IMG/VR virus record: IMGVR_UViG_3300024507_000366
DNA length: 64,000 nt
Strand: one strand, 5' to 3'
Source: an uncultured virus (IMG/VR IMGVR_UViG_3300024507_000366)
Lineage: Duplodnaviria; Heunggongvirae; Uroviricota; Caudoviricetes
In this document: piece after piece, positions 2,224 to 61,339 of the stretch
Position numbering within the stretch: position 1 is the first letter of the stretch
How the letters are laid out: each line of letters opens with the position of its first letter
Translations under genes and position numbers: made by a program
The notes under the pieces: generated by a model
Database searches by the model: none
Seen by the model: the letters and a program-made list of their open reading frames with translations, nothing else
Told to the model about the DNA's origin: nothing

Positions 2224-3163
2224 TCCAAAGGATATTTTAACAAAGTTTTATTCTTCAAAAAAATGCACTAGGCCGATATTAAAAGATCTTGATAAGATAA
2301 AAGAATCTAATGAGTTAAATTTAACAACTTTAAATATTGGACTTGGAGATGCAATTATTTTATCGTCTCTTACAAAAGACACTAGAAAAAAGTTAGATAT
2401 TTATTCTTTAAATAGGCACTGGCAAACTTTGTGCAAATTTAATAATAAACTAAATCCATCAGTACAAGAGGCAAAGAACAGGATTAGAGTAGAGATCCTG
2501 CACTTTTTTGATTGCGGAAATGGACATCTGTATCAAAAAACACAAAGGGCTCTTGGCTTAGAAGTCGATACATTGCCTAAAGGATATCTAACTCCGACAG
2601 TAAAAACCTCTATTAGAAAAAATAGAATTGCTATTAATTTTTCTACTGGACCAAGCGGCCTAGATCTGTTATCTGTTGGATTTAAAAACCCAAGAAGACT
2701 AGAAGATAATGCCAAACTTGAAATTGAAAAATTTATCAAAAATTCAAATTATAGTTTTGTAGAAATAGGGACTGAAAGAATGTTCGACTTTGATAATGTT
2801 GAAGACTTCACAAACAGATCCGTTGAAGATTCACTGAATGAACTAAGCTCATGTGAATTTTTTATAGGGCTTAATAGTGGCTTTATGAACGCAGCATCAT
2901 GTTTTGATATTAAGTCAATTATCATTGTGAATGTGCCAAGAATAGAAGATCTTTATCTACCGATAATTGTTGACTTCTACGATGACGAAACAAGAGCCGC
3001 GCAAGATCTTGAATGGCTGTTTCCGCAGAATGTGCATCTGCATCAAAATGGTGAAAATGAATTGGTTCCAATCGTATCAGAAGAAAATTTAAAAAAAGCA
3101 ATTAATGGCGAGGTATATCCTTATTGGAAATTTGATTTTCTTGATCTAATATTTACAACATGA
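2216..3163 (+). CDS. Glycosyltransferase, GT9 (heptosyltransferase)-like
   Basis: GLGDAII N-motif; FIGLNSGFMNAA C-motif; start moved to ATG 2216, overlapping previous gene end. Confidence 0.65.
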   Translation: MDNPKDILTKFYSSKKCTRPILKDLDKIKESNELNLTTLNIGLGDAIILSSLTKDTRKKLDIYSLNRHWQTLCKFNNKLNPSVQEAKNRIRVEILHFFDCGNGHLYQKTQRALGLEVDTLPKGYLTPTVKTSIRKNRIAINFSTGPSGLDLLSVGFKNPRRLEDNAKLEIEKFIKNSNYSFVEIGTERMFDFDNVEDFTNRSVEDSLNELSSCEFFIGLNSGFMNAASCFDIKSIIIVNVPRIEDLYLPIIVDFYDDETRAAQDLEWLFPQNVHLHQNGENELVPIVSEENLKKAINGEVYPYWKFDFLDLIFTT

Positions 3164-4302
3164 ACTGGCCGCTAAATGTAGACAACTTTACATTCGTTGA
3201 TAGATTAAAAATTTGCTCCTTTATTCTTAATAAGAAGAACAGGTGGACGCAAGGGAATCTTATCTATCAGTTTGAACTAGCTATGGCGGATTTTGTTGAC
3301 AGTAAGTACGCAGTATACTGTTCAAGCGGCTCAACTGCGAACACGATGATTGCGATGTATCTTGCTGACAAAGAGAAAGATAAGAATATCGTAGTTTTTC
3401 CATCTACAACTTGGGCCACATCAGTTGGACCATTTATTAGAGAAGGATTTTTACCAAAATTTATTGACGTATCCCTTGAGGATCTTTGCTTTAACTATGA
3501 TCTGCTTGAGGACTTTGTATCAAAAAACAAAGATAATATTGCTGCAATCTTTCCGACAAGCCTGCTAGGATTTGTTCCAGATATCCCTAGATTAAAGAAA
3601 ATAGCTCAAACTTATGGAGTAAGGCTAATGTTTGATAATTGCGAAAATACATTTGGGACTTATGATGGCAAAAACGTATCATCTTTTGTTACCTCCACTA
3701 CAAGTACTTATTTCGGCCACCATCTTCAAAGCATAGAAGGCGGATTTGTATTCACAAATGATGTAGATGAATACGAATATTTCCTTATGCTTAGAAATCA
3801 CGGGATGACAAGATCCGTAACAAATAATGCACGGTACGCCAATTTAGATGTTGATCCAAGATTTGATTTTTATTGCGTAGGGAATAATTTTCGAAACTCA
3901 GAAGTCCATGCGATGACTGGCCTTCTTGATCTCAAAAAAGCAGACAAACATATAGAAACGAGACGCAGGCTTTACTCTTTATTTGACACATATCTTTCTG
4001 ATCTTTATTATCTGCCGCCATTTGATGAAAAGAAGGAACATGTGGCTTTTGCCCTGCCAATCATACCGCTTAAGCAGGAAAGCAAGCAGCTCGCAATTAA
4101 TTATTGCAATTCAAAGGGCATTGAAACAAGACCTATTATTTCTGGCAATCTGCTTAGACAAACTTGTTTTAAGCAGTTTGGCAACTACGCCGATTATCCA
4201 AATAGCGAGTTCCTGCATCACAATGGGTTCTATGTTGGTCTCCATACTAAACTCAAAGACTCTGACGTAAGAAATTTAGCCAAAGATCTCAACACTATTT
4301 AA
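3160..4302 (+). CDS. DegT/DnrJ-family PLP enzyme, His-type (ColD-like 3-dehydratase)
   Basis: SSGSTAN, DNCE, STYFGHHLQSIEGG (His at the usual Lys position), GIETRPI. Confidence 0.8.
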   Translation: MNWPLNVDNFTFVDRLKICSFILNKKNRWTQGNLIYQFELAMADFVDSKYAVYCSSGSTANTMIAMYLADKEKDKNIVVFPSTTWATSVGPFIREGFLPKFIDVSLEDLCFNYDLLEDFVSKNKDNIAAIFPTSLLGFVPDIPRLKKIAQTYGVRLMFDNCENTFGTYDGKNVSSFVTSTTSTYFGHHLQSIEGGFVFTNDVDEYEYFLMLRNHGMTRSVTNNARYANLDVDPRFDFYCVGNNFRNSEVHAMTGLLDLKKADKHIETRRRLYSLFDTYLSDLYYLPPFDEKKEHVAFALPIIPLKQESKQLAINYCNSKGIETRPIISGNLLRQTCFKQFGNYADYPNSEFLHHNGFYVGLHTKLKDSDVRNLAKDLNTI

Positions 4303-4303
4303 A

Positions 4304-4660
4304 ATGTCAACCGAAAGAATAAATAAAATTAGCGAGCTTCTTCTAGAGGAGATCTCGGAACGGTTTGACAAAGAGCCGATCCACTCTTCTGATATCGAGT
4401 TTAGTGAAAGCTTCGCTGAAATCATGGATCGCTTTATTGTTCTGCACATTAGAATGTGGAAGCTGGAAGATGCGATTGCCGATGCAAAGACGGACGCCGA
4501 AGTCGCAGACTTGAAAAGGAAAGTCGATTACTGTTTCAAAGATCGCCGCCCGAAGTTAACAAAGGCAATTAATTCATATCTTGACGTTTATGTTAACAAG
4601 AATAACGTCAAAAAGTTTTCAGAAGAAAACGTTAAACTTTATAAAGGATTTAAAAATTAA
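4304..4660 (+). CDS. DUF4254-like small helical protein
   Basis: ESFAEIMDRFIVLHIRMWKLED pattern; located in glycan cluster. Confidence 0.45.
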   Translation: MSTERINKISELLLEEISERFDKEPIHSSDIEFSESFAEIMDRFIVLHIRMWKLEDAIADAKTDAEVADLKRKVDYCFKDRRPKLTKAINSYLDVYVNKNNVKKFSEENVKLYKGFKN

Positions 4661-5688
4661 TGAAAAAAGTAATCATTACAGGAGTTACTGGTCAGGATGG
4701 TAGTCATATGGCAGATTACCTTTTAACTAACACTGATGTTCAAATTTTTGGTGCAGTTCGTCGTCTTAGTGTTTCCAACCATAAAAATATTAGCCATATT
4801 TCCGATCCAAGATTCAAGCTTATCGACCTTGATATTGGTGACCCAGAAAGCGTAAATAACGCGATATTCAAATACAAGCCGGATTATTTTATTAATTTAG
4901 CGGCAAACTCCTTTGTAGGGACAAGTTGGGAAATGCCAGTCAACCATATGCAAACCAACTGTATGGGAGTGCTTTATCAACTTGAGGCAATTAGAAAGTT
5001 TGTTCCAAACTGTCGCTACTACAACGCAGGCTCCTCAGAGGAATTTGGAGATGTTACCTTTAGCCCCCAAACAGAATTTCATCCACTTAGACCCAGAAGT
5101 CCATACGGAGCATCAAAAGCTGCCGCAAGACAAGTTGTAAAAGTATGGAGAGACTCTTACAATCTTTATGCAGTTCAAGGCTGGCTTTTTAATCACGAAG
5201 GAACTCGCAGAGGCTCAGAGTTTGTCACTAGAAAGATCACCAAGGGAGTTGCAAAAATTAAAAAGGCAATAGACTCAAATAACTTTATTGAGGCTATAAA
5301 GCTAGGCAATCTTGAGTCAAAGCGCGATTGGAGTGATGCTGAAGACTTTGTTCATGGTATTTGGCTGATGCTTAATCAGGAAAAGCCAAAGGACTATGTG
5401 CTTTCTTCTGACGAAACTCATACTGTTAGAGAATTTGTAGAACTGTCTTTTGCTGCGGCTGGTATCGAAGGTCAATGGCTCGGCAACCGAGGAACCATCG
5501 AAGAAGTCTTTATAAATAAGGAAAGCAGACTTCCTATGGTAATGATCGATCCAAAGTTCTTCCGCCCAGCTGAAGTCGAACTGCTTCTTGGCGATTCTAC
5601 AATGGCCAGAAGTGAGCTTGGCTGGCGACCCAAGACAAGCTTCTTCCAGCTTGTTAAAAAGATGACGCTCAACGACCTTGCTCAATGA
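4660..5688 (+). CDS. gmd: GDP-mannose 4,6-dehydratase
   Basis: ITGVTGQDGS, PRSPYGASK, LFNHE, FVTRKIT, RDW, FRPAEVELLLGD. Confidence 0.95.
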   Translation: MKKVIITGVTGQDGSHMADYLLTNTDVQIFGAVRRLSVSNHKNISHISDPRFKLIDLDIGDPESVNNAIFKYKPDYFINLAANSFVGTSWEMPVNHMQTNCMGVLYQLEAIRKFVPNCRYYNAGSSEEFGDVTFSPQTEFHPLRPRSPYGASKAAARQVVKVWRDSYNLYAVQGWLFNHEGTRRGSEFVTRKITKGVAKIKKAIDSNNFIEAIKLGNLESKRDWSDAEDFVHGIWLMLNQEKPKDYVLSSDETHTVREFVELSFAAAGIEGQWLGNRGTIEEVFINKESRLPMVMIDPKFFRPAEVELLLGDSTMARSELGWRPKTSFFQLVKKMTLNDLAQ

Positions 5689-6635
5689 ACCATATCCTAG
5701 CTTATTGCGTACTGAATGAATTTCATCCATCAAGATTAAATATCTCAAGAGATTTAAACAGCGTAAATCTTTTTAGAAACGAAGCTCACTGCTCCATCTC
5801 TAGGGATGGAGTTCGTGTTTTAAGAAAGTCAAATTGGATCGACGAGATACGACTTAATTTCTTTATCCAATTTACAGACGCAACCATTAGAAGCTATAAT
5901 TTGTGCGATCTTGATTTTGAAGCCATTGTAAACTTTAACGATGGTCCGCAGAACGACTCAAAGGAAACAAGGCTGTGCTTTGCGCGTCCAAGAAACAGTC
6001 CACACATCTGCATTCCAGATTCTCATTTGTCGCGAACAGCTAGCATCTGTAGCCAAATAGAGAGCGTGGATATTCCATTTGAAGAAAAAATGGATAAAGC
6101 GATTTTTTGCGGGTCAGATACTGGCGCAAAGCACAATGGTTCAGTGCAAAGAATTGATCTTTGCAGAAAGTACAGATACAGCCAACTAGTAGACGCTAAG
6201 ATTACAAACTTTGTCGAATTTCCCTTTGAGGATGGCATCGCTGGAGCTTATATCAGTATTGCTGATCAATTAAAATATAAATATATTTTAAATGTCAATG
6301 GCAACACCACATCTTGGGAGAGGCTAATCTGGGCAATGAAATCAAATTCTATTTGTATTTATGTTCGCCCTCCGTCGTATCAAGATGAGATTTCTTGGTA
6401 CTATCATATGTTTGATGTCATTCAGGGCGTAATTTATGTTGATCAAGACTGTATCGAACACTTTATGGCACAGATGGGAAATGATAAAAATTACATTCAA
6501 TCAATTAAAAATTGTCAAAAATATCTAGCAAATGCTCTTGACAAACCAGACGTTCATGCCGCATACTTCTCCGCAATCCTAAAAGCTTATAACAGTTATT
6601 ACAATGGAGGCGGCGATGTTCAAAAACTCAGTTAA
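5685..6635 (+). CDS. Glycosyltransferase family 90 (CAP10-like)
   Basis: KAIFCGSDTG, DQLKYKYILNVNGNTTSWERL...SNS. Confidence 0.7.
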   Translation: MNHILAYCVLNEFHPSRLNISRDLNSVNLFRNEAHCSISRDGVRVLRKSNWIDEIRLNFFIQFTDATIRSYNLCDLDFEAIVNFNDGPQNDSKETRLCFARPRNSPHICIPDSHLSRTASICSQIESVDIPFEEKMDKAIFCGSDTGAKHNGSVQRIDLCRKYRYSQLVDAKITNFVEFPFEDGIAGAYISIADQLKYKYILNVNGNTTSWERLIWAMKSNSICIYVRPPSYQDEISWYYHMFDVIQGVIYVDQDCIEHFMAQMGNDKNYIQSIKNCQKYLANALDKPDVHAAYFSAILKAYNSYYNGGGDVQKLS

Positions 6636-30877: not shown

Positions 30878-33181
30878 ATGAAAAAGCAAATGACTGTTAA
30901 GAAGAGAAGCGGCGAAATGGAAAAGTTTGACGCTGACAAAATCAATAGAGTTTTAGCTTGGGCCTGTCAGGGTATTCCAGACACTTCCTTTGAGGAGGTT
31001 GGTATGAACGCCAACCTGTCTTTTTTTGACGGAATCTCGTCGAAGGATATTCACAATACAATGATCGAGACCGCAGCTAATTTGATTTCTGAGGAAAAGC
31101 CTCAGTATCAATATGTTGCGTCGCGCCTTTTAAATTACCATCTTCGCAAGGAAGTTTGGGGCGGCAAGAATGCTCCAAAGCTCATCGACTTTGTAAAAGA
31201 CAATATTAAAAATAAAGTCTACGATCCAGAGATTTTAAATTGGTACGATGAGCGTGAGTGGCATAAGCTGGATGAGGCTCTGAAGCACGACCGCGATTTT
31301 AATTTCACATATGCTGGCATCAAGCAGCTTTGTGAAAAGTATCTTGTTCAGAACAGAACCACAAAGAAACTTTATGAGACTCCGCAGTTCGCTTATATGC
31401 TGATTGCGATGACTTTGTTCAAGGATTACAAAGGCGAGCGAATTAATTATATTAAAAAGGCTTATAATTACTTCAGTCTTCACAAGATCAATCTGCCGAC
31501 TCCAATTATGGCAGGCGTCAGAACCACTCTGAAGTCTTATGCTTCTTGCGCCCTGTTTACTGTAGACGATACTCTTGAGTCCATCTTCGCAAACAATAGC
31601 GCTATCGGTTTTGCGACTGGCAACCGTTATGGCATTGGCATCAATGCAAGTCGTATTCGTGCCGTAAACTCGCCCGTCAAGGGCGGAATGGTCAGCCACA
31701 CTGGCCCCATTCCTTTCTTGAAGATGTTTGAGTCTACCGTAAAGTCCTGCCATCAGAACGGCATTCGCGGAGGCTCTGCAACAGTCAATGTTGCTTGGTT
31801 CCATCACGACATCGAAGAAATTCTCGTCCTCAAGAACAATGCTGGTACAGATGATAATCGCGTTCGTAAGCTCGACTACTGCATTGGTTTTGATCGTGTT
31901 TTCTATGATCGCCTAATCAAGAATGAACCAGTTACGCTATTCTCTTATCACGAAGTTCCCGAGCTTTGGAACTATTTCGGAATGCCAGAGTTCAAGGATA
32001 TTTATGAGGCGGCAGAAAAGACGAAGAGTATTAAGTTTAAAAAGACAGTAAATGCTCGCGAGCTTTTCTATCTGTTCTCCAAAGAGAGAGTTGAGACTGG
32101 CCGTATTTATCTGATGAATGTTGACCACGCCAACACTCACGGCTCTTGGAAGGCACAGGTCGATACTAGCAACCTTTGCCTTGAGGTAAACCATCCTCTG
32201 AAGGCGATTAAGGATCTTAACGATCCAAACGGTGAAATTGGCGTGTGTATCCTGTCTGCCGTTAACCTCCTTGAGGTCGATAAGAACGAGATGGACTCTG
32301 TGTGCGAGATCATTGTCCGAATGCTCGACTCTTTGATTGATCACCAAAACTACTTTGTTCCCGCTGCCGCAAACTTTGCCAAGAATCGCCGTAGTCTTGG
32401 TGTTGGCGTCACTAACCTTGCTGGTTACCTCGCTGATCTTGGCGTAAAGTATACCGACAAGGAAGCTGCTAACGAAGCCGCCAAGATTATGGAGCTTGTC
32501 AGTTTTAATCTGATTAAGGCTTCAGTAAAGATGGCAGAGGAGTTTGGCGCCTGCAAACTGTTCTCCGAAACTAAGTTCGCTGATGGAATCCTGCCAATCG
32601 ATACTTACTGCAAGAATATTGATGAGTTCGTGACCGAGAAGCTGCATTGCGATTGGGAAGGTTTGCGTAAGGACATCAAGAAGCACGGGATGCGTCACAG
32701 CACTCTGACCGCGCTGATGCCTGTCGAAAGCAGTTCTGTAATCCAGTCGTCTACCAATGGTATCGAGCCCCCTCGTTCACTGATCTCATACAAGCGGTCA
32801 AAGGCTGGTGTTATTCCGGTTGTTGTTCCTCATATGAAGAAGAACAAGGACAAGTATACCCTTGCATTTGAAATGCCCAACAACTCTGGTTACCTCAAGG
32901 TTGTTGCGGCTCTTCAGAAGTTCGTCGATATGAGCATCTCGACTAATCTTTACTACAATACCACTCGCTACACTAATAAAATTCCAAGTCAAGGCGAACT
33001 CGTTGGCGATTTAATGCTCGCCTACAAGTATGGAATTAAAAATCTTTATTATACAAACAGCTTTGATGGCGACACTCAGACTGCATTAAATACAGTTAAA
33101 CAAGAACCAAAACAAGTAAGCCAACCAGAAGAAGCTCAAGACGATACTCAGGGCTGCGCTGGCGGAGCTTGCACTCTATAA
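30878..33181 (+). CDS. nrdA: Ribonucleotide reductase class Ia alpha (with ATP cone)
   Basis: VKKRSG, ETPQF, PTPIMAG, ASC, SNLCLE, VCILSA, MPVESSS, LYY, C-terminal CAGGAC. Confidence 0.97.
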   Translation: MKKQMTVKKRSGEMEKFDADKINRVLAWACQGIPDTSFEEVGMNANLSFFDGISSKDIHNTMIETAANLISEEKPQYQYVASRLLNYHLRKEVWGGKNAPKLIDFVKDNIKNKVYDPEILNWYDEREWHKLDEALKHDRDFNFTYAGIKQLCEKYLVQNRTTKKLYETPQFAYMLIAMTLFKDYKGERINYIKKAYNYFSLHKINLPTPIMAGVRTTLKSYASCALFTVDDTLESIFANNSAIGFATGNRYGIGINASRIRAVNSPVKGGMVSHTGPIPFLKMFESTVKSCHQNGIRGGSATVNVAWFHHDIEEILVLKNNAGTDDNRVRKLDYCIGFDRVFYDRLIKNEPVTLFSYHEVPELWNYFGMPEFKDIYEAAEKTKSIKFKKTVNARELFYLFSKERVETGRIYLMNVDHANTHGSWKAQVDTSNLCLEVNHPLKAIKDLNDPNGEIGVCILSAVNLLEVDKNEMDSVCEIIVRMLDSLIDHQNYFVPAAANFAKNRRSLGVGVTNLAGYLADLGVKYTDKEAANEAAKIMELVSFNLIKASVKMAEEFGACKLFSETKFADGILPIDTYCKNIDEFVTEKLHCDWEGLRKDIKKHGMRHSTLTALMPVESSSVIQSSTNGIEPPRSLISYKRSKAGVIPVVVPHMKKNKDKYTLAFEMPNNSGYLKVVAALQKFVDMSISTNLYYNTTRYTNKIPSQGELVGDLMLAYKYGIKNLYYTNSFDGDTQTALNTVKQEPKQVSQPEEAQDDTQGCAGGACTL

Positions 33182-33185
33182 AAAT

Positions 33186-34241
33186 ATGAAAACCGTACTT
33201 AACACAGTTAATCTCGATTCACTTAAACAGCCTCTATTTCTTGGCGAAGACTTGGCAATTCAGCGGTATGATCGACTGAAGTATCCCAAGTTTTACGAAC
33301 TATACGACCAGCAGATTAACTTCTTCTGGCGTCCACAGGAAGTAAATCTAACTAAGGATGCGGCAGATTACAAGACGCTCTCTCCCGAAGAGAAGTTTGT
33401 CTTCGATAGCAATCTGCGCTTTCAGACAATGACTGACTCTATGCTGAGTCGCAGCATCAACTCTCTCTCTAAGTACGTAAGTAACCCAGAGCTTGAGATT
33501 TGTATGAATGTCTGGTCATTCTTTGAGACTGTTCATAGCAACAGCTATACATACATCCTGCAAAACGTTCACCCAGATGCCACCAAGTTCTTTGATTCTA
33601 TCTTAGAGGACAAGGAGATCGTTAAACGCGCACAGGCGATCTCTAATCGCTATGACGCCCTGCTGAATACCAAGAGCGACGATCCTCGTCAGCAGATCTT
33701 TGAGGCTCTGCTGGCTACCCAAATCACAGAAGGTGTCACCTTCTATGTTTCATTTGCCTGCTCATTCTACTTTGGTTATCGCGGTAAGATGGAAGGTAAC
33801 GCCAAGATCATCAATCTTATCTCCCGAGACGAGAATCTGCACGTAGCCATTAGCCACAATATCTTGAAGATTCTGCGCGATCAACCCAAGGAAGGCTTTC
33901 AAGATATTGTCAAGAAGAATGAAGATCGTATCTACGAGGCTTACAAGATGGCAGTTGAGTCAGAAAAGGATTGGGCCGACTATCTATTCTCCAAGGGCAA
34001 CCTTGTGGGCCTTACCTCTGATTCGCTCAAGCACTATGTTGAGTGGCTGGCGGACAATAGACTGACATCGATGGGTTATAAAAGAATTTATAATACCAAG
34101 TCTAATCCACTTGCTGGCTGGCTTGACAGCTTCTATGACAGTAAGAAGATTCAGGTTGCCCCACAGGAGACCGAGATCTCTTCTTACGTCAAGGGAGTAG
34201 ACAGCAAGATCGATGAGTCAGTGTTTGATATCAAGTTCTAA
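33186..34241 (+). CDS. nrdB: Ribonucleotide reductase class Ia beta
   Basis: FFWRPQE, ETVHSNSY, EGVTFYVSF, RDENLH, VAPQETEISSY. Confidence 0.97.
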   Translation: MKTVLNTVNLDSLKQPLFLGEDLAIQRYDRLKYPKFYELYDQQINFFWRPQEVNLTKDAADYKTLSPEEKFVFDSNLRFQTMTDSMLSRSINSLSKYVSNPELEICMNVWSFFETVHSNSYTYILQNVHPDATKFFDSILEDKEIVKRAQAISNRYDALLNTKSDDPRQQIFEALLATQITEGVTFYVSFACSFYFGYRGKMEGNAKIINLISRDENLHVAISHNILKILRDQPKEGFQDIVKKNEDRIYEAYKMAVESEKDWADYLFSKGNLVGLTSDSLKHYVEWLADNRLTSMGYKRIYNTKSNPLAGWLDSFYDSKKIQVAPQETEISSYVKGVDSKIDESVFDIKF

Positions 34242-52730: not shown

Positions 52731-54896
52731 ATGATTGTTCAAACCATCCAGCGCAACGTTGTTGAATCCAGCGACTTCAAGTCTGAAATCGCTACTATCG
52801 ATCCGCAGGAGATGCGCTACATCTCCTCGCTCCTCCGCAACAATTACTCCGAGCCGATTTTGGCTACGGTTCGCGAGACCGTTGCCAACGCCCTTGACGC
52901 CAACTCTGGCGCGAATCGGCCCATCGAGATCACTTGCCCGAGCTTCCAAGACCCTGTTTTCAAGGTCCGCGATTTCGGCGCTGGCTTGTCTGAGGAAGAC
53001 CTCTTTGGTCTTTACACCAAGTACGGTCGCTCCACCAAGCGCGACGACAACACTTGCATTGGTGGATTCGGTATCGGTCGCTTTGCTCCTCTGTCCTACA
53101 CCGACACTTTCAACGTCGTTTCCCGTAACAACGGCAAGGAAGTGATCATCTCCGTCTACGTTGACGAGGAGGGTAACACTCGCTTCACCAAGCTTGGCGA
53201 GCAGGCTTGCACTGGCGAGAGCGGCTTGGAGATCATCGTTGCAGTGAAGATGGACAACCTGTCCGAATTCAAGGAGGCTATTGCTTACTGCACTTGTTTC
53301 CTCGACAAGGATTTCGTTCTGCACGGTATGCAGAAGATCGTCACGAACTGGACCGTTAAGACCGATTCTTGGGGGCACTTCAGTGAAGCAGAAAATGATG
53401 CAGATGGCAATCATCCTTGCCATCACGGCGCGAATGCCTTGCTTGTTATGGGCGGCGTTCCTTACCCTGTTGACCTTGGAACCTTGATCACTGTCGGGAC
53501 TCAGGGCAAGATTGCCGAGTTCATCTCCGTGATTAATAATCGCGGCTACTCTGCTCGCAATTTCGTTTTCTTCGTTCCCGTTGGCTCTGTGTCCCTGCAC
53601 CACTCTCGCGAGAGTCTGGAATACAACCCGCGCACCAAGTCCTTTTTAATTAATTTTTTTAACAAGGTTCAGTCCGAGATGCTGGAGGACTTCCAGAGCA
53701 ATCTCAGCAAGTTTAACGACTTCTCAGACTTCGTTGACGCGCAATCTAAAATCTGCGCCAACCCCATCTTTCGGACGATTGCTAATCGGGAGTTCGTTTT
53801 CACTTCAGCTTCCGGTCAGACCTTCAAGTCGAACTGCTTGCAGAAGGTCAATGACATTCTGATTGCAGCCTTCTCCCAAAACATCCGCAGGCGTCGTTCT
53901 AGCTCCTCTGCTTTCAAGCGGATCAACCTTACCAAGGAGAACATTTACATCGAGGACATTTTTGACTCCAAGGCAAACAACTATCTCTTGGTAGCCGACG
54001 AGCGCAGTTATATGAACTGCATCAATTGGATCTTTGCCGAAAAGCCTTTTGAGTTCAATAACATCTTCGTTGTCTCCAAGGAAAACGCTGAGAAGACCCT
54101 TCTCATCAACCACACCAAGAGCAAGAATATCCTGTTCGTTTCTAAGACCTCCAAGATCGTTCGTCCCAAGGCTGGAGCGACAGATGTCTTGAGGCTTTGG
54201 AAGACTGGCGATTCTCTCTACGGCAATCATTACGTTAAAACCACAGCGCCGAGCGAGGATTTCCATTATGTTCTGATTGACAGGAACAACAGCAAGCACC
54301 CTAGCAATCACGAAATTACTTTCGGTCGTTCCCGCCTTCATCTGAAGAGCAGCAGCCTCTATCACTTTATCATTGAAACCTCAAATAAGCTTGGCATCAA
54401 AATCGATGCTCTCTACGGGATTTATAACGAATTAAATCTCCCGCCTAACGCCAAGAACCTCTTCACTGAGTTTTCGGATAAGTTCAAGGCTCTGGCGAAG
54501 AAGAACGAGGATATTCTCGCCAAGAAAGCTGGGGCTCTGCACTACAGGTCGCTGCTTGAGCGTTCAATGTCGAACACTAGCAACACTGTGTTCCGGCTTG
54601 ACTTGTCCGCCTCGTTGGGCAAAGACCATCCCCTCTCCAAGATCGGGGCTAAGGCTTTCGACAGGGTTTCCTACAGCGATGACCTTCAAGAGAAGGAAAT
54701 CGATTTGATCTCCAGTATCACCAGCAAGGGCACTTTCGAGATGGAAGACCTTCCCGTCGATCAGAAGAAGATCGAGAATGAAGTTATGTTTGTGGTCAAC
54801 AAGTACCCGATGCTGAAGCATCTTGGCTGGAGTCACGGTGCAGAAGCCTCAACCGACATCATCAACTACATCAAGTTTATCGATCAGCACTCTTGA
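52731..54896 (+). CDS. rIIA: rIIA-like protein (GHKL ATPase N-domain)
   Basis: YSEPILATVRETVANALDA, VRDFGAGL, YG.STKR, IGGFGIG; followed by rIIB. Confidence 0.85.
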   Translation: MIVQTIQRNVVESSDFKSEIATIDPQEMRYISSLLRNNYSEPILATVRETVANALDANSGANRPIEITCPSFQDPVFKVRDFGAGLSEEDLFGLYTKYGRSTKRDDNTCIGGFGIGRFAPLSYTDTFNVVSRNNGKEVIISVYVDEEGNTRFTKLGEQACTGESGLEIIVAVKMDNLSEFKEAIAYCTCFLDKDFVLHGMQKIVTNWTVKTDSWGHFSEAENDADGNHPCHHGANALLVMGGVPYPVDLGTLITVGTQGKIAEFISVINNRGYSARNFVFFVPVGSVSLHHSRESLEYNPRTKSFLINFFNKVQSEMLEDFQSNLSKFNDFSDFVDAQSKICANPIFRTIANREFVFTSASGQTFKSNCLQKVNDILIAAFSQNIRRRRSSSSAFKRINLTKENIYIEDIFDSKANNYLLVADERSYMNCINWIFAEKPFEFNNIFVVSKENAEKTLLINHTKSKNILFVSKTSKIVRPKAGATDVLRLWKTGDSLYGNHYVKTTAPSEDFHYVLIDRNNSKHPSNHEITFGRSRLHLKSSSLYHFIIETSNKLGIKIDALYGIYNELNLPPNAKNLFTEFSDKFKALAKKNEDILAKKAGALHYRSLLERSMSNTSNTVFRLDLSASLGKDHPLSKIGAKAFDRVSYSDDLQEKEIDLISSITSKGTFEMEDLPVDQKKIENEVMFVVNKYPMLKHLGWSHGAEASTDIINYIKFIDQHS

Positions 54897-54935
54897 TATT
54901 TTCCCATCAACCCATAACATACAATACCTAGTATT

Positions 54936-56027
54936 ATGAATAAGCCCGCCTACATTATGCGCGACGAGTCTATCACGGTCATCGTGGAGAATCGTCCTTA
55001 CACGGTCGAGAAGACGCACCCGAACTTCCTTCCTCTCCGTAAGGCTTTGCTGAATGGAGACTACAGCGACATTCCGAACCTCGTTTCGGTGCCGCACGTT
55101 ATCAAGAATATGACTCGCGGCTCGATCCGTATCGAGAACGAGAAAGTGTTCTACAAGAACCATCAGCTTCACGGCGTCGTTGTGAACAAGCTGATCGAGA
55201 TGCTGAAGGCTGGCGCGACTGACGCTGACCCTCTCCTGCTCTTCATCGAGCGTCTGATGGCGAATCCTTCCGCCAACTCTGTCAACGAGCTTTACACGTT
55301 CCTGTCTTACAAGAACTTGCCGATCACTCCCGCTGGAACTTTCTTGGCCTACAAGGGGGTTAAAAATGATTTTTATTCCCGTCAGGCCAACAAGGACACT
55401 ATCGTTGTGCAGGGCAAGACGGACTCCACTGGCGCCATCTTCAATGGTGTCGGTGAGACCATCGAGGTTGCTCGCCGCTCGGTCGATGACGTTAAGGACA
55501 ATCACTGCTCCTTTGGCCTGCACGTAGGCAGCTACGATTACGCGAACAACTGGGCTGGCAATGACGGTCGTCTGTTGCTGGTGGAGGTCGATCCCGCTGA
55601 TGCTGTCAGCGTGCCGACTGACGCCAACTTCCAGAAGCTCCGCACCGCTCGCTACAAGGTCGTTGCCGACATCACTCCCGAGCGCAAGGAGATTCCCGAT
55701 GCGGTCTACAACTACAGCGATGACTGCGATGGCTGCGACGAGACTTGCGAAGGCTGCGAGTCTGAGACCAGCTACGACAAGATGTTCAATGAACTCAACG
55801 CCGAACACGACGAAGACTTCATCAACCTCAAGATTCGCAACTACATCGAGAACTCCATCGAGGCTGGCACTCACCCCAGCATCAAGCAGATCCAGAGCCG
55901 GATGAAGAATTACTCTCTGTCCTGCGAAGTGATCGAGGAGATCGTCACCGAGGAACTCGGCTACCGAGTCACCAGCGATGACGGTTCCGATAGCTACAGC
56001 AGCCTGCTCGTTTACCATAACTTCTGA
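54936..56027 (+). CDS. rIIB: rIIB-like protein
   Basis: NPS...ELY.FL, G.FLAYK.V, CSFGLHVG, V.VDPADAVSVP.D..K.R...Y.V. Confidence 0.88.
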   Translation: MNKPAYIMRDESITVIVENRPYTVEKTHPNFLPLRKALLNGDYSDIPNLVSVPHVIKNMTRGSIRIENEKVFYKNHQLHGVVVNKLIEMLKAGATDADPLLLFIERLMANPSANSVNELYTFLSYKNLPITPAGTFLAYKGVKNDFYSRQANKDTIVVQGKTDSTGAIFNGVGETIEVARRSVDDVKDNHCSFGLHVGSYDYANNWAGNDGRLLLVEVDPADAVSVPTDANFQKLRTARYKVVADITPERKEIPDAVYNYSDDCDGCDETCEGCESETSYDKMFNELNAEHDEDFINLKIRNYIENSIEAGTHPSIKQIQSRMKNYSLSCEVIEEIVTEELGYRVTSDDGSDSYSSLLVYHNF

Positions 56028-58850: not shown

Positions 58851-58925
58851 GTCTCTATAGTTTAACGGATAAAACCGTGGATTTCTAATCCACTAATCAG
58901 GGTTCGATTCCCTGTGGAGACGCCA
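58851..58925 (+). tRNA. tRNA-Arg(UCU)
   Basis: GTCTCTA/TGGAGAC acceptor; GTGGA-TTTCTAA-TCCAC anticodon arm; GGTTCGATTCC; encoded CCA. Confidence 0.92.
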
Positions 58926-58932
58926 AATTTCA

Positions 58933-59472
58933 GTGCAGCACATCTGTTTAAATTGCAAGACAGAGTTTGTTAACTCTGACAAACGAAGTAAGTTTTGTAA
59001 GCAATCCTGCGCTGCGGTTTACAACAACAAGCTTTTTCCAAAAAGGAAAAGGCTGCGTAAATGCAAGAATTGTGATAACCTTGTCAAATCTGGCCGAACT
59101 TATTGCGAGACCTGTGTTTCTAAAAAAATCCATTTTTGTAAAAACGGAATGATTAAAAATGGATTGATCGAGGACAGAACTCTTGAAGAAGAAGTTTTCT
59201 TAAAAAAGCACAGAGGCGCTAACAGATACGACCACATCAGACAGCACGCCCAGCGTGTAATGAAAGACGAAAAACGCGCCTGCCAGTGCGGTTACGACAA
59301 GCACGTTGAAGTTTGCCACATAAAAGCCATAAGGGACTTCGATTTAAAAACAAAAATAAAAGACATTAACTCAAAGGAGAATCTCGTTCTCCTATGCCCC
59401 AACTGCCACTGGGAGTTTGACAATGGACTTTTGACCCTAAAAAATGTTGGTAATTCGCAGAGCAACGCTTGA
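58933..59472 (+). CDS. HNH endonuclease with N-terminal zinc fingers
   Basis: CLNC..FC..SC, CKNC, EVCHIK...NLVLLCPNCHWEFD. Confidence 0.85.
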   Translation: MQHICLNCKTEFVNSDKRSKFCKQSCAAVYNNKLFPKRKRLRKCKNCDNLVKSGRTYCETCVSKKIHFCKNGMIKNGLIEDRTLEEEVFLKKHRGANRYDHIRQHAQRVMKDEKRACQCGYDKHVEVCHIKAIRDFDLKTKIKDINSKENLVLLCPNCHWEFDNGLLTLKNVGNSQSNA

Positions 59473-59494
59473 CAGACGATCCTACACTGTGATA

Positions 59495-59626
59495 ATGTTA
59501 AGGGGCGAAGAGCCAAAGTGGATTCCAACAACTGACTACGAGCACCAACGAATTTTAGAAATCTACAAGCAAGATAGACGCTACGACGGCATCCTTAACG
59601 ACTTTTCAGACTACGACATCAAATGA
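59495..59626 (+). CDS. Small hypothetical protein
   Basis: ATG 59495, ATGA-coupled to next gene; TTGACA-16-GATAAT (59469-59496) overlaps the start. Confidence 0.4.
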   Translation: MLRGEEPKWIPTTDYEHQRILEIYKQDRRYDGILNDFSDYDIK

Positions 59627-59847
59627 ATATCAAAAAAGGTTTTGTAATCGAGTTCAACGTGCGGGGCGACAATGGGAAAAAGTATCCAAACTCCGTGATG
59701 ACGAGCGAAGAATTTGGCACAGAAGTGTTCAATGACTTGACAGAAGGCGAGCAAGCTGGTAGTGTATCTACAGACAGAGATATTGAAGGCATCGTTGGCT
59801 TCAACACCCCTGTCAAATACGACCGCGCATTCGTTATTTTAAATTAA
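59623..59847 (+). CDS. Hypothetical protein
   Basis: Clean ORF before tRNA. Confidence 0.55.
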   Translation: MNIKKGFVIEFNVRGDNGKKYPNSVMTSEEFGTEVFNDLTEGEQAGSVSTDRDIEGIVGFNTPVKYDRAFVILN

Positions 59848-59853
59848 TTTTAT

Positions 59854-59930
59854 CGTCCCATAGCTCAATTGGTTAGAGCAAGCTCTTTATAAGGGCTAGG
59901 TTCTGGGTTCAAGCCCCAGTGGGACCACCA
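59854..59930 (+). tRNA. tRNA-Ile(UAU)
   Basis: AGCTC-TTTATAA-GGGCT anticodon arm; TAGCTCAATTGGTTAGAGC D-arm; GGTTCAAGCCC; ACCA end; C1:C72 mismatch. Confidence 0.9.
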
Positions 59931-59938
59931 ATTTCACA

Positions 59939-60163
59939 ATGTCTTACGTTCAATTAACTGAAGCCCAACTCTATGACCTTGGAAGTCGCGGTTTACCGTA
60001 TGACGACAGGAATATTCTGAGGCTTCATATCCTGCATCTTCGTCACGAACACGATATGAATGTTCGTGATATTGCGAAGAGGATGGGAATGAAAATGAAG
60101 ACGGTACAAAAGTATTTGAAGTCCGATTCTGTCGAATTGCAAAAGTTTAGACCTGAGTTTTAA
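59939..60163 (+). CDS. Small HTH (sigma region 4-like) protein
   Basis: MNVRDIAKRMGMKMKTVQKYL. Confidence 0.6.
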   Translation: MSYVQLTEAQLYDLGSRGLPYDDRNILRLHILHLRHEHDMNVRDIAKRMGMKMKTVQKYLKSDSVELQKFRPEF

Positions 60164-60169
60164 AATTTC

Positions 60170-60244
60170 GGTGCTATAGCTCAATGGTAGAGCAGCGTCC
60201 TTTTAAGTCGTTGGTTCTGGGTTCAAATCCCAGTGGCACCACCA
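60170..60244 (+). tRNA. tRNA-Lys(UUU)
   Basis: GGTGCTA/TGGCACC; loop CTTTTAA; GGTTCAAATCC; ACCA. Confidence 0.92.
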
Positions 60245-60248
60245 ATTT

Positions 60249-60357
60249 TGGCGTAGGGCTAAGACGGTTCGATTCCGTCGTCATCTTGGCCGATGTTTAA
60301 TAGCCGATATGGACAAGGCAATGCATCTGCCATCAAGGTTCGATTCCTTGCGCGCCA
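60249..60357 (+). ncRNA. tRNA-like cloverleaf RNA with two T-arms
   Basis: TGGCGT/GCGCCA closing stem; GACGG-TTCGATT-CCGTC and CAAGG-TTCGATT-CCTTG; two further hairpins. Confidence 0.65.
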
Positions 60358-60386
60358 TCAATTCTCTTAATCAAGAAATAAATCAT

Positions 60387-60575
60387 ATGGAACACCCTCT
60401 ATATTATGCCATTGATTATGATCTTAATGTGATCAAGTTGGGCTATTTTGACAACTACCATCTTGCTTGTCTTTATGCTGAAAAAAAGGAGATTGAGTTT
60501 ATGAAAATTTTCAATCACGCTGAACTGGTTACTCTTTACAATAACATTGATGCTGCCACATCAGATTGGTCTTAA
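60387..60575 (+). CDS. Hypothetical protein
   Basis: Start moved to ATG 60387, downstream of the RNA. Confidence 0.55.
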   Translation: MEHPLYYAIDYDLNVIKLGYFDNYHLACLYAEKKEIEFMKIFNHAELVTLYNNIDAATSDWS

Positions 60576-60630
60576 CCGTTAGATGATAGCGGCATAAAAT
60601 GGAGCCTTCATTGGTTAGACAACCTTTTAC

Positions 60631-60659
60631 TTGACTTCCTTCAATCCTTCAAATACACT
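60631..60659 (+). promoter_or_regulatory. Sigma70-type promoter
   Basis: TTGACT-17-TACACT, 9 nt before ATG 60669. Confidence 0.6.
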
Positions 60660-60668
60660 GATCGCACA

Positions 60669-60866
60669 ATGAAAATCACAACCAAAAAGTCCAAGTCTGT
60701 CCGACTTGTTGCCGAAAGCTACGAAGACCGTTGCCTGCTGACCGAAATCAGCCGCAAGATGAACAACAATGCGTGCTATCACGAATACATTGACACTTCA
60801 GCATTTGACCGTCACGAACGTGTCACTGAACTGACCCTGTGCATTACAGAGCCCGTTAACTCTTAA
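60669..60866 (+). CDS. Hypothetical protein
   Basis: ORF with its own promoter. Confidence 0.55.
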   Translation: MKITTKKSKSVRLVAESYEDRCLLTEISRKMNNNACYHEYIDTSAFDRHERVTELTLCITEPVNS

Positions 60867-60910
60867 CGCTTTTAATGTTGACTTTCGCCGTGAATTTTTA
60901 CTATTAATTA

Positions 60911-61249
60911 ATGAAGCAATGCCGCCGCTGCGGGACCATAAAAGAAATCGAACAGTTCCCATTCTTTTCTGGTCAGCAGACGGGGCGCAAAAACACCTGT
61001 ACGGAATGCACGAAAGAGTTGTCTCGGTTAAGAGCAAAGCTCAAGACCGAGAATCCTCCACCAGCAGCGGGCGAATGCCCTATTTGCAGCACTCACACCG
61101 AAATCTGGATACTGGATCACTGTCACTTCACGAATGAGTTTCGGGGCTACATCTGCAACAACTGCAATCTCGCGCTTGGCAGATTCAACGACGACGAAAA
61201 ATTGTTGAGAAAAGCTATTGACTATTTGAACGGAAAAAATAGAGTGTAG
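60911..61249 (+). CDS. Endonuclease VII-family protein
   Basis: CRRC..K, CTEC, CPIC, LDHCH....RGYICNNCNLALG. Confidence 0.85.
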   Translation: MKQCRRCGTIKEIEQFPFFSGQQTGRKNTCTECTKELSRLRAKLKTENPPPAAGECPICSTHTEIWILDHCHFTNEFRGYICNNCNLALGRFNDDEKLLRKAIDYLNGKNRV

Positions 61250-61255
61250 GTAAAT

Positions 61256-61332
61256 GGCCGTATAGACCAACCGGCAGAGTCAAGTCACTTAAAATGACTG
61301 TAGTGTGGGTTCGAATCCCTCTGCGGCTACCA
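61256..61332 (+). tRNA. tRNA-Leu(UAA), short variable arm
   Basis: GGCCGTA/TGCGGCT; AGTCA-CTTAAAA-TGACT; 5-nt variable loop; GGTTCGAATCC; ACCA. Confidence 0.88.
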
Positions 61333-61339
61333 ATTTAAA

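Follow-up and report, generated by a model that had tools for sequence, protein, structure and literature searches.

The window analysed here is a stretch of 64 kb (64,000 nucleotides) out of the 67-kb IMG/VR virus record IMGVR_UViG_3300024507_000366, which derives from an uncultured member of the Caudoviricetes and is judged ∼46% complete. Within its tRNA array, positions 60249–60357 accommodate an element of about 110 nt that contains two complete T-arms and hardly varies among related phages. We favour, with moderate confidence, the view that this element is a small-RNA gene derived from tRNA, conserved but non-decoding, which forms one unit of the phage tRNA array and is functional rather than debris.

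The element starts after the ATTT that trails the CCA of tRNA-Lys (60244). Its parts, in 5′ to 3′ order, are the following:

60249–60254, plus strand: 5′ strand TGGCGT of a closing, acceptor-like stem, read from the sequence, which pairs with GCGCCA
60255–60262, plus strand: linker AGGGCTAA, unpaired and GG-containing, D-loop-like without a stem, invariant in all five variants
60263–60279, plus strand: T-arm 1, GACGG-TTCGATT-CCGTC, with a 5-bp stem, in the position of a D-arm, invariant in the five variants
60280–60314, plus strand: central imperfect hairpin of 35 nt with 10 pairs, one bulged G, one C-U mismatch and a 12-nt loop, for which rival pairings exist
60317–60331, plus strand: small hairpin GGCA-ATGCATC-TGCC with a 4-bp stem and a 7-nt loop
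60334–60350, plus strand: T-arm 2, CAAGG-TTCGATT-CCTTG, which abuts the closing stem as in a tRNA and whose loop is TTCAATT in one variant
60352–60357, plus strand: 3′ strand GCGCCA of the closing stem, followed by the CCA position and an ATT trailer, to 60363

The closing stem comprises six pairs, one of them U-G, and a single C stands between T-arm 2 and its 3′ strand. T-arm 1 abuts the central hairpin with no linker at all, AA separates the central from the small hairpin, and AT lies between the small hairpin and T-arm 2. The loop of the small hairpin reads GGGCATC in three variants, GGGCAAC in one and ATGCATC in the window, with GCA at the centre in every case. The coordinates and letters of all hairpins had been set out in an earlier note on this DNA and proved right when checked against the sequence.

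The two T-arms are solid. The motif GGTTCRANTCC occurs five times in the window, where 0.34 copies are expected and none of 100 shuffles reaches five: three copies fall in tRNAs called by ARAGORN and the other two in the element. T-arm 2 is canonical, and the stem beside it consists of six pairs plus the unpaired C. Closing stem, spacer base and T-stem 2 together amount to ∼12 stacked pairs with a 3′ N-CCA position. The same number of pairs is stacked in the acceptor and T-stems of a tRNA, and such an acceptor/T minihelix is what RNase P, the CCA enzyme and enzymes that modify the T-loop recognize. Taken alone, the 6-bp closing stem is plausible but not significant, as stems of at least six pairs were found in ∼10% of mismatched-flank controls. 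No canonical anticodon arm is present by sequence, ARAGORN or Rfam, and among the tRNAs of the window and six related loci no parental tRNA was found that shares either T-stem or the 3′ strands.

Standard annotation tools pass over the element. ARAGORN made no call on it in default, intron, pseudogene or tmRNA mode; the calls obtained with the -ps90 setting, in two of five sequences, span neighbouring sequence with long ‘introns’ and were rejected as spurious. Across the whole window Rfam returned, at gathering scores, the same four tRNAs that ARAGORN detects (Arg-UCU, Ile-UAU, Lys-UUU and Leu-UAA) and no match to the element. At E≤10, in runs on 401 nt and on 131 nt, the element attracted fragments of 11.5–14.3 bits alone, mascRNA, tRNA-Sec and tRNA among them. 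The top sub-threshold match was mascRNA (14.3 bits, E 1.4, versus a gathering score of 42.5), and the tRNA family RF00005 gave a partial alignment of 13.4 bits (E 2.5, versus a gathering score of 29). A tmRNA_permuted fragment of 13 bits (60217–60269), seen in the 401-nt run, overlaps the first 21 nt of the element; no tmRNA family is listed on the element itself at E≤10. A blastn search against 50,697 phage records gave matches over the tRNAs alone and none over the element. The earlier note had taken the element for a tRNA-like unit without a canonical anticodon arm rather than a tRNA, and had named a match to a known family as one outcome that would overturn this. ARAGORN, bar its spurious calls, and Rfam yielded no above-threshold match, which together with the N-CCA-ATT ends of two variants bears that assessment out.

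Protein-anchored and pattern scans recovered the element at 29 loci, all in related phage contigs, as five distinct variants: the window's exact element at 12 loci, V5 at three, V2 at 12, and V3 and V4 at one each. The window stretch occurs in riverine metagenome runs, and 12 of the 14 loci of the metagenome scan carry the element. Two loci of that scan, L146 and L148, were rejected as carriers and are ordinary packed tRNA arrays.

Among the five variants, 13 of the 116 columns of the alignment differ. Ten of these columns are unpaired (loops, linkers, the mismatch position and the 3′ tail), two belong to the closing stem, where one change from U-G to U-A and another from U-A to U-G leave the pairing intact, and the remaining one is a one-base ambiguous indel at a stem–loop border. 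Variable columns are concentrated in unpaired positions (Fisher p 0.039). The closing-stem pairs are standard in all five variants despite the two one-sided changes, and all 30 pairs of the structural model are kept in every variant.

The degree of conservation stands out against the immediate surroundings. Between the window lineage and V2, V3 and V4 the element differs at 7–9 of 111–112 positions, whereas the endonuclease VII gene nearby differs at 97–101 of 318, and its third codon positions at 56–59 of 106 (44–47% identity); the Fisher p for element versus third codon positions ranges from 1e-13 to 6e-16. The element thus stands at 92–94% identity across lineages in which the adjacent endonuclease VII gene has fallen to 68–69%. 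The blastn profiles rank the element as the best-kept block of the region (92.4–93.8%), compared with 88–89% for tRNA-Ile, 86–94% for tRNA-Lys and 68–80% for protein genes. This pattern suggests strong purifying conservation, unlike that of a neutrally decaying relic. Because the element has remained near-constant while neighbouring genes diverged, it is probably a working small RNA.

The element also behaves as a unit of the array. Every tRNA of the array ends in N-CCA-ATT; the element terminates in G-CCA-ATT in V3 and V4, in A-TCA-ATT in the window and V5, and in A-CCG-ATT in V2. Its borders are exact in three left contexts, namely tRNA-Lys, two odd tRNA-like units (locus L143) and a small helix-turn-helix open reading frame (ORF; locus L144). 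Three right contexts occur as well: in three variants the start codon of the endonuclease VII gene follows 35 nt past the element end, and the window and V5 have one sequence each, different from the other, with two ORFs between element and endonuclease VII gene in both. The high identity and the true N-CCA-ATT in two variants argue for a conserved tRNA-array unit and not decaying debris. The earlier note had likewise argued against random decay, and it is supported by these ends, by the gap in identity between element and neighbouring gene, and by the 30 pairs kept throughout.

Two of these loci merit a description of their own. In L143, which carries V3, two odd units replace tRNA-Lys before the element (minus strand, 995–1065 and about 905–990): the first escapes ARAGORN but scores 40.8 bits as an Rfam tRNA, its anticodon loop being of UUU type and its T-loop aberrant, and the second is short and ends in a T-arm-like hairpin plus A-CCA. 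In the relative L120, the gap where the element would be lies exactly between two CCAATT unit ends, and an ordinary tRNA-Lys sits 35 nt before the endonuclease VII gene, at the element's place. L120 (2914–4270, compared with window 59852–61336) is a recombinant from which the element and two ORFs are absent at the join, and it has an extra HNH gene (3695–4123, minus strand) before tRNA-Leu.

A number of observations weigh against a functional small RNA. The predicted fold of the whole element is not better than that of shuffled sequence (z −1.21; 28 of 200 shuffles do as well), and z lies between −1.05 and −1.52 for the three family variants folded (window, L125 and L143). The five-helix model is 2.6 to 10 kcal/mol above the minimum free energy across the five variants. 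Helix probabilities disagree among variants and the middle has rival folds: the Boltzmann probability of the central hairpin ranges from 0.03 to 0.63 and is 0.03 in the window sequence, and RNAalifold favours a different middle, the alternatives being another central hairpin and a D-arm-like pairing GCCG/AGGC. None of the 30 pairs shows a compensatory two-sided change within the five-variant family. The GG of the small-hairpin loop is lost in the window copy, and the encoded CCA is altered in three of five variants, twice to TCA and once to CCG. L120, L130 and L131 have no copy of the element in the sampled parts of their genomes; as some relatives do without it, the element is dispensable or accessory. 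The region is, moreover, mosaic. On its left side, through the end of tRNA-Lys, L120 matches the window at 94% identity, and on its right, over the endonuclease VII gene, it matches other lineages at 90–93%; the element is missing exactly at the join of the two identities, and whole-unit exchange therefore occurs. Recent module exchange could inflate the identity of the element relative to the endonuclease gene.

Transcript data weigh neither way. Six riverine metatranscriptome runs contain part of a 901-nt stretch of the window, and contigs from four of them, at depth 2–5, include one that covers 59741–60289 and another that covers 60338–60675. No such contig extends over 60290–60337, and the contigs reveal neither ends nor strand; carry-over of DNA is also possible.

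The structure drawn in the earlier note survives in part: its T-arms exceed chance, but neither the closing stem taken alone nor the whole fold reaches significance. Its ‘long stem’ at 60280–60314 is indeed a hairpin with a 12-nt loop, yet an imperfect one of low predicted probability in the window. The comparison of homologues that it had called for revealed strong purifying conservation rather than decay, but no compensatory covariation.

How the element might be expressed and employed can be sketched with reference to its neighbours:

59469–59496, plus strand: stronger promoter-like site, TTGACA-16-GATAAT, 11/12, from a consensus scan alone
60137–60166, plus strand: promoter-like site just before tRNA-Lys, TTGCAA-18-TAAAAT, 9/12, from a consensus scan alone
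60170–60244, plus strand: tRNA-Lys(UUU), the array unit just upstream of the element, found by ARAGORN and by Rfam (tRNA, 72.3 bits), ending in ACCA and then ATTT
60911–61249, plus strand: endonuclease VII-like gene (PHROG endonuclease VII, 4.4e-25)

The element would be co-transcribed with tRNA-Lys; the consensus scan found no terminator-like site on the plus strand from the promoter-like sites to the element. If it is matured like a tRNA, RNase P would cleave at G60250 as position +1, and 3′ trimming would be followed by a CCA tail as for tRNA. The window copy encodes TCA, and CCA would therefore have to be added. The product may then act as a tRNA mimic, offering one or two T-arm/elbow surfaces to a factor that reads tRNA shape: candidate partners are T-loop modifying enzymes, the CCA enzyme, RNase P or a tRNA-targeting host defence nuclease. 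In a five-helix topology like that of a class II tRNA, T-loop 1 may replace the D-loop at the elbow, and the T-loops could find partners in the linker, which is invariant and contains GG, and in the GG-loop hairpin. The narrower proposal of the earlier note, a decoy for anticodon nucleases, was not upheld, as the element contains no anticodon-loop mimic of any array tRNA.

The strongest of the competing explanations, unlikely in our estimate, is that the element is a functionless chimera of tRNA fragments, thrown up by recombination and homing-endonuclease traffic and persisting because too little time has passed. One tRNA would have supplied the T-arm and 3′ strand, and another, which had lost its anticodon arm, the adjoining remnant from D-arm to 3′ end. 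The RF00005 alignment fits such a make-up, since it reads 60301–60350 as a tRNA with U8-A9, a D-arm (A14, G18, G19, A21) and a T-arm from which the anticodon arm is deleted; the 7 nt plus 1 after T-arm 1 are also arranged like an acceptor 3′ strand. The altered CCA ends, the lack of compensatory changes, a fold no better than shuffles and the three relatives without the element all sit well with debris, and so do the HNH and endonuclease VII genes interspersed in the array. T-loop hairpins outside called tRNAs are, in addition, common in viral contigs (53 of 123 close pairs sampled), and tRNA gene fragments have been described as a widespread by-product of element integration (PMC9897764). Against the chimera stand the 92–94% identity of the element beside third codon positions at 44–47%, a conservation matching that of the array's real tRNAs, the exactness of the unit borders in several contexts and the true CCA in two variants. 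The 5′ strand, moreover, pairs with the 3′ end, which would be unneeded in a displaced 3′ fragment.

Beyond the favoured reading of a conserved array unit, a broader one is put forward tentatively, and we regard it as improbable rather than expected: the element may be one member of a widespread, previously undescribed class of phage RNA in which an acceptor-like stem encloses two T-arms and variable hairpins, and which resides in tRNA or tmRNA arrays of unrelated phages. The T-loops would form a tRNA-elbow-like or elbow-docking surface of an RNA acting in trans. Such RNAs could serve as a decoy or sponge for host factors that read tRNA shape or for tRNA-cleaving defence nucleases, as a binder of the tRNA elbow or, in chargeable members, as a non-ribosomal aminoacyl carrier.

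Both this broader reading and the favoured one draw on the recurrence of the architecture in other phages, seen in two scans of viral contigs, capped at about 118 loci (L002–L118 and L156–L273), for T-loop pairs 40–64 nt apart. At least one T-loop lay outside ARAGORN tRNA calls in 53 of the 123 close pairs sampled in the first scan. Among 102 distinct pairs 40–60 nt apart, the flanks could be joined by a stem of at least six pairs in 21 cases (10.2% expected, p 0.001) and of at least seven pairs in 11 (4.4% expected, p 0.005). Very long terminal stems surround some T-arm hairpins, reaching 19 bp in L188, 14 bp in L243 and 11 bp in L224. Three look-alikes can be singled out. L139/L277 is part of a tRNA array, that of a complete phage of 211 kb; its closing stem has 8 bp and it folds at z −3.08; its 17-mer T-arm 1 is identical to that of the element, a 4-bp/7-nt hairpin and AT precede T-arm 2, and the model R1, built from the family, scores E 2.5e-7 in this genome. 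L062 has a closing stem of 8–9 bp. L266/L280 starts 4 nt after a phage tmRNA gene and has G3:U70, A73 and CCA. In L280, a 93-kb viral contig, the tmRNA occupies 602–995 (RF00023, 113 bits) and the two-T-arm element 501–604 on the minus strand, and a third CCA-ending unit lies at ∼420–500, after the two-T-arm element. ARAGORN, run on the overlapping L266, found no tRNA in the stretch of these three units.

Threading of L139 and L266 on R1 gives two-sided changes with pairing retained at 17 of the 30 pairs, a number that none of 500 shuffles attains. The result favours the model by its design: the threading alignment is fitted to the model and both sequences were chosen by their T-loop pattern, so that a shared architecture is shown and not proven homology. 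A scan of bacterial genomes for T-arm 1 plus the T-loop pattern returned two matches, both ordinary tandem tRNAs.

The element could, with low probability, be a cis-acting processing signal of the t-element or mascRNA type that recruits RNase P and 3′ tRNA-processing enzymes and so sets the 5′ end of the downstream mRNA, as the earlier note had also suggested. The 35-nt distance to the endonuclease VII start codon in three variants is in keeping with this, as are the alternation of tRNAs and small ORFs on one strand, the lack of an intervening plus-strand terminator-like site and the rank of mascRNA as top sub-threshold Rfam match; tRNA-like t-elements are known to shape mRNA ends in plant mitochondria (PMC1920247). 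L120 speaks against the suggestion: its ordinary tRNA-Lys takes up this position ahead of the endonuclease VII gene, so that no special element is needed for the purpose. In the window and V5, moreover, element and endonuclease VII gene are separated by two ORFs, and a processing signal leaves the second T-arm and the invariant 5′ half unexplained.

A Y-RNA-like mimic of the YrlA type, likewise raised in the earlier note, is very unlikely. Under this explanation T-arm 1, the central hairpin and the GG-loop hairpin would be permuted T, acceptor-like and D modules, and the paired ends a protein-binding stem. YrlA does share with the element a tRNA-derived canonical T-arm, an acceptor-like hairpin, a D-like hairpin and paired ends. 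Its module order has been given as 5′ motif, YUAY, T, AS and D (PMC4201824), with which the element is compatible: it reads GGCGTAGG, CTAA, T-arm 1, a hairpin without linker, AA and a 4-bp hairpin whose loop has GG in four of five variants. According to the same source TruB, DusA, RNase P and the CCA enzyme all accept YrlA as a substrate (PMC4201824), a maturation of the kind proposed for the element. The likeness stops short at several points. The GGCGTAGG stretch misses the GNCGAAN0-1G motif of YrlA by one base, and the D-like loop is without A14 and A21. YrlA carries a single T-arm, with no CCA-type terminus beside it, and the element differs in both respects. YrlA lies within 4 kb of the Ro60 gene (PMC4201824), whereas no TROVE domain was found among the ORFs scanned in the window (55 ORFs with Pfam, 19 with PHROGs; the window being ∼46% of the genome) and PF05731 is absent from five related or analogous records, of which two are complete phages. 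The Rfam matches at E≤10 include no family of Y-RNA type.

Hardly credible is an aberrant tRNA that still decodes, either as a relic of tRNA-Cys with GCA in the 7-nt loop or as a suppressor via the 12-nt loop. GCA is central in the 7-nt loop of all five variants and is preceded by U in the window copy, the first four acceptor pairs and the 3′ strand CGCGCC presumably resemble E. coli tRNA-Cys, and tRNAs of relatives gain or lose extra arms. There is, however, no D-arm, the stem has 4 bp with 2–3 nt to the T-arm, G and not U precedes the triplet in four of five variants, the discriminator is A or G, and ARAGORN and Infernal reject the element. Decoding through the 12-nt loop was rejected, as the candidate triplet is not constant across the variants and a 7-nt loop closed by a 5-bp stem is lacking.

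We give equally little credence to a site acting at the DNA level, an attP-like copy of the 3′ part of a host tRNA or a target or recombination site of the neighbouring endonucleases: the tRNA-like 3′ part, the flanking endonuclease genes and the loss in L120 exactly between two CCAATT unit ends would suit it, but no integrase was found in the window by Pfam and PHROG scans, rIIA/rIIB are among its genes, the 5′ strand is complementary to the 3′ end as no attP core requires, bacterial genomes gave ordinary tandem tRNAs alone for the pattern, and the endonuclease VII gene also occurs without the element.

The array around the element is of a mixed kind, with tRNAs and small ORFs alternating on one strand. 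All four tRNAs of the window (58851–61332) read A-ending codons, and interleaved with them are small ORFs, an HNH endonuclease gene (58933–59472) and the endonuclease VII-like gene (60911–61249). The two small ORFs that stand between element and endonuclease VII gene in the window lie at ∼60387–60575 and ∼60669–60866. A mechanically called ORF of 88 aa (60309–60575) begins within the element and has no Pfam or PHROG match. Because relatives that bear the element are without the 88-aa ORF, the real gene inside it, if any, probably starts at ATG 60387 (62 aa).

The architecture of tRNAs in this phage group is unusually plastic. tRNA-Leu(UAA) is 77 nt long without a long variable arm in the window (61256–61332) and 76 nt in L120, and in other relatives it measures 86–88 nt with a long variable arm (e.g. 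L125, 1984–2071); tRNA-Ile(UAU) of L150 is 94 nt long with an extra arm. Elsewhere the gene content of the window comprises rIIA/rIIB-like genes, both ribonucleotide reductase subunits, ThyX, a RecA-like protein and a Lon-like ATP-dependent protease, together with a sugar-modification block (DegT aminotransferase, GDP-mannose dehydratase and glycosyltransferases) and lambda-J-like tail genes; the stretches concerned are 52731–56027, 30878–34241 and 3160–6632.

Phage tRNAs have been reported to act as counter-defence against host nucleases that cleave tRNAs (PMC10264068). If the element is a true tRNA mimic that engages tRNA-recognizing enzymes or tRNA-targeting defence, it would add an RNA-based layer to that picture. 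There is a consequence for annotation too: ARAGORN and Rfam call neither the element nor the similar units examined here.

Among known RNAs, several share individual features with the element. The tRNA-like domain of tmRNA has in common with it an acceptor stem and T-arm with CCA, a D-loop-like stretch without D-stem and the lack of an anticodon arm; in contrast to tmRNA, the element has C3-G70 in place of G3:U70, no tag reading frame and no pseudoknots. Five helices closed by an acceptor stem are found in class II tRNAs (Ser, Leu) and in the model of the element alike, and the end-to-end alignment of R1 with tRNA-Ser (23.2 bits) and tRNA-Leu (16.7 bits) of T4 fits this topology. The element departs from them in having a T-arm for the D-arm and, as ‘anticodon’ hairpin, one with a 12-nt loop and no conserved triplet.

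Paired T-loops are themselves an established device. Interdigitated double T-loops at the tip of T-box Stem I, in RNase P and in the ribosomal L1 stalk lock into a platform that docks the tRNA elbow (PMC3664808, PMC4919913). These are 5-nt motifs in bulges or apical loops of one helix, whereas the element has two complete tRNA-type T-arms. No description of a two-T-arm phage RNA was found in the literature, most subscription journals and the old T4 and T5 papers being outside the search. The ‘T-large’ motif is a candidate RNA with two T-loops, and its family is not among the Rfam matches to the element at E≤10.

The tRNA arrays of phages have, since T4, been known to hold small stable RNAs other than tRNAs. 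In T4 itself rnaC and rnaD (‘small, stable RNA’ species 1 and 2) directly follow tRNA-Arg in the tRNA cluster, so that they share with the element the position of an array unit right after a tRNA; the T4 array also holds a homing endonuclease gene, segB. At 119–139 nt the two RNAs are close to the element in size. As far as we know, no function has been reported for either. rnaC possesses a canonical T-arm at its end (CCGGG-TTCGAAT-CCCGG) beside a short stem formed by its two ends, with large hairpins in place of the D and anticodon arms. The differences are that rnaC has one T-arm against the two of the element, that its fold is far better than shuffles (z −4.57) as the fold of the element is not, and that neither T4 RNA has a CCA end in the annotated record. 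Homology was not found with R1, which gave 13.2 bits on rnaC and nothing on rnaD. The element would be a second, well-delimited case of a non-tRNA RNA in a phage tRNA array, with two full T-arms, measurable conservation and look-alikes in unrelated phages. By analogy, T4 rnaC is its closest known counterpart: the element may be regarded as an RNA of that kind, not homologous to it, and endowed with two T-arms.

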